The position numbers were made by a program, and so were the translations under genes. From NCBI GenBank assembly GCA_030753365.1, contig JASMCJ010000061.1, positions 1 to 41,116 of the forward strand: a DNA stretch of 41,116 nt, read 5' to 3'. The notes under the pieces were generated by a model. The model made no database searches and was not told where the DNA came from. It saw only the letters and a program-made list of their open reading frames with translations. This DNA is from Candidatus Woesearchaeota archaeon. GTDB lineage: Archaea; Nanobdellota; Nanobdellia; Woesearchaeales; GCA-2687795. This document shows, piece after piece, positions 35,093 to 36,093 of this stretch. Position 1 is the stretch's first letter, and each line of letters starts with the position of its first letter.

Positions 35093-35247
35093 CGCCCCTG
35101 ATCAGACTCGAACTGATGACCTATACCGAATAAGGGCTCTTGCCCTTATCTTGCGGTGTCTCTCCTAGTAGGATAACAGCTTCGTGGTTTCTAACTCGCA
35201 CGCTCCACCTATTGCTCCATGCTTTCGCATGTCTAAGCTACAGGGGC
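35093..35247 (-). tRNA. tRNA-Asn (anticodon GUU) interrupted by four introns
   Basis: Exons are 35247-35233, 35211-35197, 35180-35174, 35157-35152 and 35122-35093. Introns are 21, 16, 16 and 29 nt. The spliced product is a canonical 73-nt cloverleaf with G73. Confidence 0.75.
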
Positions 35248-35250
35248 ATT
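35233..35250. repeat. direct repeat, proximal copy (tRNA-Asn exon 1 + 3 nt upstream)
   Basis: CTAAGCTACAGGGGCATT is identical to 36076-36093. The match extends to 22 of 23 nt. Confidence 0.9.
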
Positions 35251-36027
35251 CAAAAATGCTTTTAGCGGAGCTAGCTCTGAAATAATGGAACACTCAATTT
35301 CTTTATAAAACTTTCTGAATATTTCTGGGATGTATAAGACTACTTCAAAACCCTGTTTTCTATAATCTTTTATTTTCTTATTTAGCTTCATTATTTTGTC
35401 TTTATCAGGATGTTTCCATTCTGTTGCTTCAATTATTTTATTACCTATCTTAAAATCTGGAAAATAAGCCTTACCACTCACATTTATATAAGGTTCATAC
35501 TCAAATTTGAAACCGTTTAAGATTAAGAAATCTCGCATTTTCTTTTCTAATTTGTTTCTTACTAAGATCTTATTTTCTAGTTTATAACTATAACCTCTCC
35601 CTACTTTCTTAAATCTTTCATACTGCCAAACATAGTATTCTTCAGGAAATCTTTCCCTCATCTCTTTATGCCACTGTTTCATACGTTTTGAACTCACCTT
35701 TCTTAATCTTTCTATTGTCTCAATAAACTTTCCTTGTTTTTTCTTTATATTAACACAATTGATACCTCCCTTAACTTTTCCCCAATTCTCTGGAAACTCT
35801 TCTAGTATATATTTATTATATTTATTGATATCTACTCCAAGAAGATTTAGAATTCTTTGTAATCTAGTTTTAGGAATATTTACTAATTCGTATTTATACC
35901 TATAGATTGCTCCTTTAGATATACCAGTAGTTTTGCATAACTTTCTTTCAGACCCTGCTTTAGTAATAGCTTTATTAATAATATCATTTAGTTTTCCTTT
36001 TTTAAACTTTAAAAACATTTTAATCAT
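35233..36027 (-). CDS. HTH + PD-(D/E)XK-like nuclease protein (homing-endonuclease-like)
   Basis: N-terminal HTH (LCKTTGISKGAIYRYK). C-terminal YFPDFKIGNKIIEATEWKH resembles the PD...(D/E)xK core of Vsr/DUF559-like nucleases. The last 5 codons and the TAG stop overlap tRNA-Asn exon 1. Confidence 0.65.
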   Translation of the reverse strand: MIKMFLKFKKGKLNDIINKAITKAGSERKLCKTTGISKGAIYRYKYELVNIPKTRLQRILNLLGVDINKYNKYILEEFPENWGKVKGGINCVNIKKKQGKFIETIERLRKVSSKRMKQWHKEMRERFPEEYYVWQYERFKKVGRGYSYKLENKILVRNKLEKKMRDFLILNGFKFEYEPYINVSGKAYFPDFKIGNKIIEATEWKHPDKDKIMKLNKKIKDYRKQGFEVVLYIPEIFRKFYKEIECSIISELAPLKAFLNAPVA

Positions 36028-36075
36028 ATAACAATCTATTCTTGTAAAAAGAAAACTCAGACTATATAAATATTA

Positions 36076-36093
36076 CTAAGCTACAGGGGCATT
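36076..36093. repeat. direct repeat, distal orphan copy of tRNA-Asn exon 1
   Basis: Identical 18-mer located 843 bp from the proximal copy. On the minus strand it reads AATGCCCCTGTAGCTTAG. Confidence 0.9.

Follow-up and report, generated by a model that had tools for sequence, protein, structure and literature searches.

Analysis of a 41,116-nt stretch of archaeal DNA, here called the window, revealed a locus that we interpret as a compact selfish cassette, made up of a nuclease gene and a replacement tRNA gene, which spreads by break repair and whose upstream repeat is the stump of the gene that it overwrote; we put the probability of this reading at about 0.6. From left to right, the cassette would comprise its own TATA box (P2), a gene for a helix-turn-helix (HTH) and PD-(D/E)XK protein, and a complete intron-bearing tRNA-Asn gene, with the tRNA promoter (P3) written in nuclease codons 240-242 and the first 10-15 nt of the tRNA supplying the ORF stop. 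The nuclease would cut tRNA genes that lack the cassette, in the D-loop or close to it; a copy with the cassette would then be the template for repair, the 5' stump and the body of the tRNA acting as homology arms, a mode of spread that would amount to 'intronless homing'. The D-loop intron of the cassette tRNA may split the target site and so provide protection.

The 5' exon of a tRNA-Asn gene is repeated on both sides of an ORF

The host of the locus is a tiny marine archaeon. The features of the locus are the following:

35093..35247, minus strand: tRNA-Asn(GUU) gene with four bulge-helix-bulge (BHB) introns, from hand-parsed introns and ARAGORN on the spliced sequence
35232-35212, 35196-35181, 35173-35158 and 35151-35123, minus strand: BHB introns of tRNA-Asn
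35233..35255, minus strand: proximal copy of the repeat, an 8-nt leader plus exon 1 of the working tRNA-Asn
35233..36027, minus strand: ORF of 264 aa, predicted HTH, helical linker and PD-(D/E)XK nuclease; homologues start at the second ATG, 36018
35278..35565, minus strand: predicted PD-(D/E)XK nuclease domain, residues ~155-250, from the family profile and fold matches
35302..35310, minus strand: P3, TTTTATAAA in codons F240-Y241-K242, 54 nt upstream of G1 of the working tRNA-Asn
35803..35994, minus strand: predicted XRE/Cro-type helix-turn-helix, residues ~12-75, from Pfam and Foldseek
36063..36070, minus strand: P2, TATA box TTTATATA at the left cassette end, directly after the distal copy
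36076..36098, minus strand: distal copy ('stump'), an 8-nt leader plus tRNA-Asn positions 1-15 (G1 at 36090, G15 at 36076)
36126..36134, minus strand: P1, TATA box TTATATAAA, 35 nt upstream of G1 of the stump, read directly

The 18-mer CTAAGCTACAGGGGCATT was present in exactly two copies (35233-35250 and 36076-36093), identical at 18/18 nt and spaced 843 bp apart, and when extended the repeat covers 23 nt with 22/23 matching (96% identity). With 3 mismatches allowed, 0 of 100 dinucleotide-preserving shuffles contained two matches to the 18-mer (0.05 expected). On the minus strand the repeat reads AAU followed by GCCCCUGUAGCUUAG, which is tRNA-Asn positions 1-15, and since an intron lies at 15/16, the end of the repeat is the 5' splice site of intron 1. 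The two bases that follow the stump, UA (36075-36074), equal tRNA positions 16-17. The four introns lie at 15/16, 30/31, 37/38 and 43/44, and a T-run (35092-35087) is found 3' of the gene. Once spliced, the 73-nt tRNA was called tRNA-Asn(gtt) by ARAGORN; the unspliced gene is missed by both ARAGORN and Rfam (gathering thresholds) because of its four introns. The first-pass annotation had reported this repeat and had equated it with exon 1 of tRNA-Asn up to the 5' splice site of intron 1; the exact count and the shuffles bear out the former, the hand-parsed introns and the acceptance of the spliced tRNA by ARAGORN the latter. Its further claim that the proximal 18-mer forms the last five ORF codons and the TAG also held. 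The stop codon of the ORF is the conserved U8-A9-G10 or U13-A14-G15 of the tRNA, and in the window TAG occupies positions 13-15.

The ORF is predicted to combine a helix-turn-helix with a PD-(D/E)XK nuclease fold

The N-terminal domain matched Pfam HTH_3, HTH_26 and YdaS, all below their gathering thresholds, and its Foldseek matches to C-proteins, SinR and HipB had a probability of ~1. For the C-terminal domain, the family profile aligned with T7 endonuclease I at E = 1.2e-4, with the catalytic E20/D55/E65 aligned, and E178, D191 (in PD), E200 and K218 were invariant in the family alignment. The structure model of the ORF had a pLDDT of 94; in BFVD, 19 matches reached E ≤ 1e-3, among them resolvases, endonuclease I, TnsA-N and Vsr, and Foldseek also matched phage proteins that carry the annotation 'homing endonuclease'. 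Phage_endo_I (PF05367) scored 17.1 bits against a Pfam cut-off of 29.1, and 4 of 51 members matched it at E ≤ 0.01, which indicates a related fold and not family membership. The likeness to T7 endonuclease I (PF05367; PDB 2pfj, 1m0d) lies in the core E...PD...E, aligned in R-x-x-LE ... FEYE ... Y(F/T)PDF ... (I/V)E(V/T), whereas the window family has an added N-terminal HTH and helical linker and carries threonine in place of K67, and the T7 enzyme is a junction resolvase, not a homing enzyme. K67 is the canonical (D/E)XK lysine, and its replacement in the family counts against the selfish-cassette reading, as do the sub-threshold Pfam scores. The HTH and PD-(D/E)XK-like nuclease of the first-pass annotation was thus confirmed as a fold by Pfam, Foldseek, the T7 endonuclease I profile match and BFVD, and we conclude that in the ORF product an HTH of the XRE type is linked to a PD-(D/E)XK nuclease fold resembling that of T7 endonuclease I, whose activity and target in this family are predictions. 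As folds, the endonuclease and the DNA-binding module are those to be sought in a free-standing homing endonuclease.

Homologues are fused to tRNA 5' exons and contain a putative tRNA promoter

We found 91 homologues of the ORF, mainly in Woesearchaeota-like DPANN archaea, with 62 matches at E ≤ 1e-30 among 1.84 billion cluster representatives. The full-length ORFs that were inspected (40-72% identity) almost all ended inside or at the 5' exon of a tRNA gene with introns, either tRNA-Asn or tRNA-Thr(UGU), the exceptions being L158, where the ORF lies ~30 nt upstream of tRNA-Asn, and L150, where only a decayed tRNA-like remnant is left at the ORF end. The same arrangement was seen in more distant relatives, at tRNA-His and at one further tRNA. 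When the nested tRNA-His repeats were put through an ARAGORN deletion scan, no outer tRNA could be made out convincingly. One ORF-bearing locus (L162) had no D-loop intron. The C-terminal tails of the proteins (NAPVA, MPR and TPL, each followed by the stop, and ASVAQ...) differed with the reading frame, and therefore these C-termini are mere read-through into the tRNA. Paralogues sharing the N-terminal domain matched PF18780, 'homing endonuclease associated repeat', at E = 9e-10. The proteins of L170 and L172 had an alternative C-terminal domain that looked 'HNH-like' by eye from a CxxC...H...N...CxxC motif, and Pfam and PDB sequence searches gave no support for an HNH fold there.

P1 is best read as the TATA box of the overwritten resident tRNA-Asn gene, still joined to its stump: a TATA box was found 24-36 nt upstream in empty-site tRNA-Asn genes and in all stumps of relatives. 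P2 is presumed to be the promoter of the nuclease gene, and a TAAT(R)(Y)TTA(A/T)ATA motif stood 3' of the stump in 16 of 16 lineages compared. As for P3, the FYK codons were exactly TTTTATAAA in 31 of the 32 loci with FYK, as against 39% predicted from the codon usage of the same ORFs, which indicates a tRNA promoter embedded in the ORF; we presume that P3 serves the working tRNA-Asn and that this accounts for the constraint on its synonymous sites. The ORF remnant of L047 starts just upstream of P3. The earlier observation of a TATA-like box upstream of the distal copy was right, but not the statement that only this copy has one, since TTTTATAAA precedes the working tRNA by 54 nt and TTTATATA comes directly after the distal copy. 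The expression model proposed with it would have the ORF transcribed solely from the tRNA promoter upstream, as a long leader that RNase P removes from the tRNA; this model is weakened, though not refuted, by the conservation of P2 in 16/16 lineages and the codon constraint at P3. With a tRNA promoter apparently placed in three codons of the upstream gene and tRNA bases doubling as its stop codon, the locus would represent an unusual degree of genome compaction.

The cassette is optional, decays and has been exchanged between lineages

Genome contigs were scanned with a 16-mer query, which was unspecific, giving 119 matches, mostly chance bacterial ones, and recovering eight archaeal tRNA-Asn loci. 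Empty sites (L027, L055, L063, L065, L077 and L094) had no ORF, and their tRNA-Asn gene had a single exon 1, carried the same D-loop intron and was preceded by a TATA box near -30, which is the state that the first-pass annotation had proposed to look for in relatives. Synteny extended on both sides between L063 (empty) and L004 (occupied), giving presence and absence at one defined site among related genomes, besides the five other empty tRNA-Asn sites. Decayed ORFs were found as well, L166 and L167 having a frameshift and a deletion and L047 retaining only the last ~30 codons; such degenerate copies are expected of a homing invasion-decay cycle. On the other hand, no empty allele was seen in the window's own population, where 10/10 further contigs were occupied with 100% identity over 1160 bp (the same contig turns up in Tara Oceans and other metagenome samples), and this constant presence counts against the selfish-cassette reading, as does a scan of viral contigs that yielded no relatives of the ORF.

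In the syntenic pair L003/L132, third-position identity was 0.93 in the ORF versus 0.45-0.66 in flanking genes, which argues for recent horizontal exchange, and the proportion of same codons given the same residue was likewise 0.93 versus 0.49-0.67. The shared tract, 94% identical, runs from the TAAT just after the stump into the tRNA and includes introns 1-3; introns 2-3 were identical at 36/37 nt and intron 4 was different, while exons are conserved in any case. Horizontal spread with co-conversion is thus seen in one pair only, as a second syntenic pair, L147/L145, looks vertical, with third-position identity of 0.57 in the ORF and 0.53 in the flanks and 79% amino-acid identity of the ORF. 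This second pair suggests long vertical persistence under purifying selection. Altogether, the empty sites (one of them syntenic), the decayed copies and the recent exchange support the earlier proposal of a mobile cassette that goes with the 5' exon of the tRNA, and they show it to be optional.

The L147/L145 pair would also fit a host-useful, vertically inherited DNA-binding nuclease or regulator, the stump being the relic of an old partial duplication kept similar by gene conversion. Purifying selection over saturated synonymous divergence in that pair, the presence of the ORF in every contig compared from the window's population, and a tRNA promoter inside the ORF, which suggests long co-adaptation, all speak for such a gene. 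We nevertheless consider it unlikely, since close relatives lack the ORF at the same site, pseudogenes exist, the signal of horizontal exchange is strong, and one ORF family, tiny and patchy, sits at different tRNAs (Asn, Thr, His, another) and has paralogues with a homing-endonuclease-associated repeat; moreover, it would require, ad hoc, that gene conversion act between repeats of 15-23 nt at a distance of 843 bp.

The upstream copy as the probable stump of an overwritten tRNA gene

The interpretation of the upstream copy that fits best is a stump left when the resident tRNA-Asn gene was overwritten, not a target-site duplication. At acceptor positions 4-7, stumps matched their own working copy in 53/64 cells; 20,000 permutation trials averaged 29 and never exceeded 44. 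In the sister clade the stump runs through an uninterrupted D-loop (..AG-(U)AUGGUAG-) to ~position 22, whereas the working copy at the same loci has an intron at 15/16, a difference that speaks against target-site duplication. The stump of L003 (GCCCCUA...) is unable to pair with the 3' strand of its own tRNA, CAAGGGC, and so looks like the recipient's old gene. It had been left open whether the cassette was inserted at the tRNA 5' exon or copied together with it; copying fits better, and insertion with target-site duplication is disfavoured by the intron difference in the sister clade.

Another way to obtain a 5' fragment and an intact tRNA is site-specific integration, in which a small circular element with an intron-bearing attP mimicking the 5' part of the tRNA enters an intron-less attB, leaving the 5' fragment and a reconstituted intron-bearing tRNA, as Sugahara et al. 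(2012) proposed for tRNA-Thr of Caldiarchaeum (PMC3293823). The architecture is indeed the one described there, an intron-less 5' fragment, an insert with a same-strand ORF adjoining the tRNA and an extra intron in the repeated part (PMC3293823); a tRNA segment is directly repeated at both borders, and the stretch shared beyond the intron in the sister clade (positions 16-22) is, at ~7 nt, the size of a recombinase overlap. However, Pfam and NCBIfam gave no integrase or recombinase family for the sole ORF, whose fold is that of an HTH and PD-(D/E)XK nuclease; the same minimal ~0.8 kb insert occurs in all lineages and is therefore not a decayed plasmid; in the window's clade at most 2 nt are shared beyond position 15; and the near-identity of L003 and L132 runs past positions 16-22 through introns 2 and 3, though not intron 4, which would fit gene conversion better than an att crossover. 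We regard integration of this kind as rather improbable.

Less probable is a giant intron with an alternative 5' exon, whereby P1 transcripts would be spliced from the distal copy to exon 2, with ...GGAGCAA joined to UAAUAUUU as the expected junction, and would release a ~860-nt circular RNA with the whole ORF. In its favour, the 3' splice region can pair with the distal copy in outer and central BHB helices (-14.0 kcal/mol), the stump of several lineages has the very sequence of the working exon 1 and suits the acceptor stem, and splicing endonucleases of DPANN archaea accept relaxed motifs (PMC5829648). But the distal copy has no inner helix and the adjacent proximal copy pairs better (-20.1 kcal/mol), so the doubt about this intron voiced in the first-pass annotation was reasonable; in addition, the stump has decayed beyond recognition in many lineages with intact ORF and tRNA (L007, L105, L135, L142), and that of L003 cannot pair with the acceptor 3' strand. 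A homing endonuclease encoded in a BHB intron, as in archaeal rRNA introns, is not supported, given the missing inner helix at the distal copy, the stump that many lineages can dispense with and the position of the ORF upstream of the working exon 1. A transposon or insertion sequence that landed upstream of the tRNA and made an 18-23-bp target-site duplication is the least credible, because, despite near-perfect and host-specific direct repeats around a single-ORF unit, there are no terminal inverted repeats at the cassette ends, no transposase domain or fold in the ORF (Pfam, Foldseek, BFVD) and one copy only in the 41-kb window, sister-clade 'copies' differ by an intron with the stump reaching ~position 22, and a 23-bp duplication is far longer than known target-site duplications.

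Precedents and implications

Two precedents come closest to the nuclease and replacement tRNA cassette: the insertion at tRNA-Thr in Caldiarchaeum (Sugahara 2012), and homing endonucleases of the free-standing kind. The insertion at tRNA-Thr(GGU) of Caldiarchaeum subterraneum likewise has an intron-less 5' fragment, a ~270-aa same-strand ORF adjoining the tRNA and a full tRNA with an extra intron in the repeated part, and it shares the presence/absence polymorphism and the link to intron gain (PMC3293823). It differs in having a 1.87 kb insert with a repeated 545-bp element, an ORF that does not overlap the tRNA and an intron at 24/25; its ORF was called a 'DNA recombinase' by a machine-learning classifier only, and att-type integration was proposed (PMC3293823). 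The window has instead a 0.83 kb insert and a PD-(D/E)XK ORF stopping in the tRNA, with a putative embedded tRNA promoter, and the exchange tract is gene-conversion-like; the likeness is one of architecture.

T4-like Seg/Mob endonucleases resemble the family as stand-alone nuclease genes by tRNA genes with a patchy distribution, and spread with their flanks by break repair. SegB in the T4 tRNA gene cluster is a free-standing GIY-YIG homing endonuclease of demonstrated activity that performs intronless homing (PMC2330249), whereas the present family, known from sequence, has HTH and PD-(D/E)XK folds, belongs to a cellular archaeal genome, is fused to its tRNA and leaves the stump of an overwritten gene. 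SSV- and pNOB8-type archaeal elements share the direct repeat of a tRNA around the insert and a gene adjoining the reconstituted tRNA on the same strand (PMC3293823). These elements are, however, many kb long and carry a tyrosine-recombinase integrase, neither of which applies to the window cassette. I-Ssp6803I of Synechocystis, a PD-(D/E)XK homing endonuclease, shares the fold and the tie to a tRNA but is encoded inside a self-splicing intron, the group I intron of tRNA-fMet. In the window the ORF is not inside the tRNA, whose introns are of the BHB type and spliced by proteins.

The duplication means that both original junctions survive in the occupied allele, and self-immunity would therefore need either a long recognition site or the intron, a further point against the selfish-cassette reading. 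That the D-loop BHB intron is the immunity device, the nuclease cutting uninterrupted D-loops and the cassette replacing them with an intron-bearing copy, is a tentative proposal that we find possible but doubtful, and many empty sites already carry a D-loop intron whereas the ORF-bearing L162 has none, both of which count against a protective intron in the selfish-cassette reading. Were the ORF lost later, through recombination of the stump with exon 1, a tRNA gene with a new non-canonical intron would be left behind.

The locus bears on how archaeal tRNA genes gained introns at odd positions and became fragmented. We know of only one earlier case, that of Caldiarchaeum tRNA-Thr, in which intron gain was tied to a mobile insertion, and there the enzyme was never identified; here an entire family has been sampled well, its nuclease can be recognised and its fusion to the 5' exons of tRNAs is fixed. 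As empty, occupied and decayed states and a dated exchange event are at hand, the mechanism can be tested with one recombinant protein and a few synthetic DNA substrates. If the immunity proposal were true, archaea would have in this cassette family, found at tRNA-Asn, Thr, His and others, an active machinery by which non-canonical tRNA introns are gained and spread, and the old idea of tRNA introns as a shield for genes against the elements that target them could be put to a direct test.

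A nuclease ORF ending inside a disrupted tRNA-Asn gene

Within the 41-kb window there are exactly two copies of the 18-mer CTAAGCTACAGGGGCATT, at 35233-35250 and 36076-36093, whereas two matches were seen in 0 of 100 shuffles; the extended repeat is 23 nt long with 1 mismatch and a spacing of 843 bp. Read on the minus strand, it is AAU + GCCCCUGUAGCUUAG. The proximal copy (35233..35255, minus) is the start of a tRNA gene that was missed by ARAGORN and Rfam, in which we parsed four bulge-helix-bulge (BHB) introns by hand:

35093-35247, minus: tRNA-Asn(GUU) gene with four BHB introns (hand parse and ARAGORN)
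35232-35212, minus: BHB intron 15/16 (hand parse)
35196-35181, minus: BHB intron 30/31 (hand parse)
35173-35158, minus: BHB intron 37/38 (hand parse)
35151-35123, minus: BHB intron 43/44 (hand parse)
35233..36027, minus: ORF of 264 aa, whose TAG stop and final five codons lie inside the proximal 18-mer

Since ARAGORN calls the spliced sequence, with the four introns out, as a 73-nt tRNA-Asn(GUU), the repeat does end at the 5' splice site of intron 1, as the first-pass annotation had claimed. The tRNA-Asn genes of relatives carry two to five introns, T-arm introns in loci L055 and L094 among them.

Pfam matches of the ORF product (HTH_3, HTH_26, YdaS and Phage_endo_I) were all sub-threshold. 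An AlphaFold model built from a 51-sequence alignment (mean pLDDT 94) comprises an N-terminal HTH domain (residues ~12-75), a helical linker and a C-terminal alpha/beta domain (residues ~155-250). The family profile matched T7 endonuclease I at E = 1.2e-4, with E178, D191 (in PD) and E200 aligned to its E20, D55 and E65, and with Thr in the family at the position of its K67. Foldseek against PDB matched the C-terminal domain to Bax1, AF1548 and SfsA, and the N-terminus to XRE-type repressors, in both cases with weak E-values and a probability of ~1. Against BFVD it gave 19 matches at E <= 1e-3, including Holliday junction resolvase, endonuclease I, TnsA-N and Vsr, and the next matches (E ~ 3e-3) were phage proteins annotated 'homing endonuclease'. 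The profile and Foldseek matches thus support an HTH + PD-(D/E)XK nuclease as the predicted fold, with putative activity.

A nuclease family addressed to tRNA genes

We collected 91 homologues of ~259 aa each; at E <= 1e-30 only 62 matches were found among 1.84 billion cluster representatives, and the named sources are Woesearchaeota/Nanoarchaeota MAGs. Nearly every full-length homologue inspected (40-72% identity) stops within, or right at, the 5' exon of an intron-bearing tRNA gene. Most loci have tRNA-Asn(GUU) as the adjoining gene, L152/153/156/157 tRNA-Thr(UGU). Exceptions to the stop position or to the intron-bearing tRNA are L158, with the ORF ~30 nt upstream of its tRNA-Asn, L150, with a decayed tRNA-like remnant only, and L162, where the stop directly abuts an intron-less tRNA-Asn. 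The C-terminal tails, which vary with reading frame (NAPVA*, MPR*, TPL*, ASVAQ...), are mere tRNA translation up to U8-A9-G10 or U13-A14-G15 read as stop. Two distant members, L192 (1501-2400) and L191 (1501-2500), match the profile at E ~ 1e-16 to 1e-23. Their ORFs end within exon 1 of a tRNA-His(GUG) with a D-loop intron and of another tRNA with several introns (acceptor GGGGAGA). A LAGLIDADG_3 protein is a neighbour of L192.

In L170 (2489-3115) and L172 (2438-3091), the N-terminal HTH common to the family is joined to a different, Cys/His-rich C-terminus, and the stop codons again lie inside exon 1, here of tRNA-Thr(UGU). Pfam and PDB searches with this C-terminus were negative, and it appears HNH-like by eye only. 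This arrangement would fit a swap of nuclease domains on a shared module that binds tRNA genes. The same N-terminal domain is found in L176 together with PF18780, 'homing endonuclease associated repeat' (E = 9e-10). The paralogues in L175, L176 and L177 (about 2501-3766; ~420 aa or more, N-terminus not delimited) share the family HTH, PF18780 repeats and a C-terminal PD...DAK motif, with no tRNA adjacent.

The distal repeat is probably the stump of an older tRNA gene

The distal copy (36076..36098, minus), hereafter the stump, resembles the working copy of its own locus: across 16 lineages, 53 of 64 cells agree at acceptor positions 4-7, which are variable, while permuting the pairing gave 29 on average and at most 44 in 20,000 trials. 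A tRNA-type TATA box always precedes the stump, and TAAT(R)(Y)TTA(A/T)ATA always follows it. In the window's clade the stump ends at position 15 + YA (= positions 16-17). The sister-clade stump continues across an uninterrupted D-loop (..AG-(U)AUGGUAG-) as far as about position 22, whereas the working copy at the same loci has an intron at 15/16, and because of this difference a simple target-site duplication was rejected. Judged from this difference, the stump is the 5' end of a gene without D-loop intron, cut off in the D-loop. It is dispensable for both the ORF and the tRNA gene, since it has decayed away in L007, L105, L135 and L142, where both are intact.

Predicted promoters of the stump, the ORF region and the tRNA

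Three TATA-like boxes were located:

36134-36126, minus: P1, TATA box of the stump
36070-36063, minus: P2, TATA box after the stump in all lineages compared
35302-35310, minus: P3, TATA box embedded in ORF codons F240-Y241-K242

The F240-Y241-K242 codons are TTTTATAAA in 31 of the 32 FYK-encoding loci, against 39% expected from the codon usage of the same ORFs, so that the 'invariant' FYK may be partly a DNA-level constraint. The tRNA follows 51-54 nt downstream of P3, or 36 nt in the Thr clade, and the ORF remnant of L047 starts just upstream of P3. The codon bias and the remnant argue that the working tRNA has its own predicted promoter, P3, and weaken the earlier proposal that the ORF is expressed as a long tRNA leader cut by RNase P. 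In the subclade of L155 and L160 the FYK/TATA motif is absent (YYQ, FYR), and the first intron of the ORF-adjacent tRNA-Asn lies at about 9/10 instead of 15/16.

Empty sites, decay and horizontal exchange

A pattern scan yielded ORF-less tRNA-Asn genes in L027, L055, L063, L065, L077 and L094, all of which share the 15/16 intron and have a single exon 1 and, ~25-30 nt upstream, a TATA box. The empty-site state that the first-pass annotation had proposed to look for is found in L063, whose occupied syntenic counterpart is L004: the part of L063 upstream of exon 1 matches the stump side of L004, and the part from exon 1 onward its working copy. The L166/L167 ORF carries a frameshift and an internal deletion, and in L047 only the last ~30 codons are left. 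In the window's population, the ORF was present in 10 of 10 further contigs compared, with 100% identity over 1160 bp.

In the syntenic pair L003/L132, the flanks are 77.5% and 69.4% identical. Third-codon-position identity is 0.45-0.66 in five flanking genes but 0.93 in the ORF; for the same codon given the same residue, the values are 0.49-0.67 and 0.93. The 94%-identical tract opens with the TAAT directly past the stump and takes in the ORF, exon 1 and introns 1-3; intron 4 is completely different, the rest of the tRNA gene is near-identical, and similarity ends ~15 nt beyond it. The two stumps differ at 3 of 15 positions. Since the L003 stump (GCCCCUAUAGCUUAG) cannot pair with CAAGGGC, the 3' acceptor strand of the L003 tRNA, it looks like the recipient's old gene, and the ORF and tRNA like an import. 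In L147/L145, the ORF has diverged like its flanks (0.57 vs 0.53) with amino-acid identity still at 79%, a pattern we read as vertical descent under purifying selection.

Other tRNA-linked repeats

At 1174-1478 (plus), a tRNA-His (1306-1378) is enclosed by perfect repeats of both its ends. The 5'-end repeat is 20 nt long (1174-1193 = 1305-1324), terminates in the D-loop and comes with a TATA box of its own; the 3'-end repeat is 32 nt long (1352-1383 = 1447-1478). Past the 5' stump the sequence reads CAGTTGACAC, the reverse complement of the sequence preceding the 3' copy (GTGTCAACTG), and no ORF lies between the repeats. A second overwritten tRNA gene is one possible reading, a nested or split arrangement another. 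A long class-II-like tRNA at ~27740-27970 (minus; T-arm 27762, acceptor GCGGAGG), missed by ARAGORN, is preceded by two tandem ~66-nt units, each opening with the tRNA's first 7 nt (27967, 27901, 27836). In L139, the tRNA-Asn 3' end and terminator (CGGCTGGGGGCGTTTTTTTCTTT) are repeated ~130 nt downstream, a sign that a separate small insertion may have occurred at this end of the tRNA.

A cassette that may spread by intronless homing

Heavy disruption of DPANN tRNA genes is known (PMC5829648); in our literature searches we found neither the nuclease family nor its fusion to tRNA genes described. The closest precedent is in Caldiarchaeum, where a 5' tRNA-Thr fragment is followed by a 1.87-kb insert, with an 813-bp ORF adjoining the tRNA, and a tRNA with an extra intron, for which mobile-element integration was proposed as the intron source (Sugahara et al. 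2012, PMC3293823). T4 SegB (PMC2330249) would be a functional analogue, cleavage by the cassette being presumed here.

We propose that the nuclease and replacement tRNA spread as a cassette through break-stimulated gene conversion (intronless homing), in which the stump and the tRNA body would serve as homology arms and each event would regenerate the stump from the recipient; we infer cleavage, target and intron role alike. Such spread would account for the host-specific stumps, the L003 mismatch, the tract boundaries, the empty sites and the decayed ORFs. An empty site could be either never invaded or the product of deletion between the repeats.

Att-type integration, as in Sugahara's model, shares the architecture seen here but fits poorly with the L003/L132 conversion tract, and no recombinase domain was found in the insert. 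A host-useful gene kept beside a tRNA would persist vertically, as seen, but does not fit the empty sites, pseudogenes, horizontal exchange or multiple tRNA targets. A giant intron from the distal copy is possible only as a relaxed motif, its duplex energy being -14.0 against -20.1 kcal/mol for the proximal copy, and it is unnecessary in most lineages. A transposon with target-site duplication fails for want of inverted repeats and a transposase and by the intron difference between the two copies. For a cassette spreading by gene conversion, the close overlap of ORF and tRNA would maximise their linkage.
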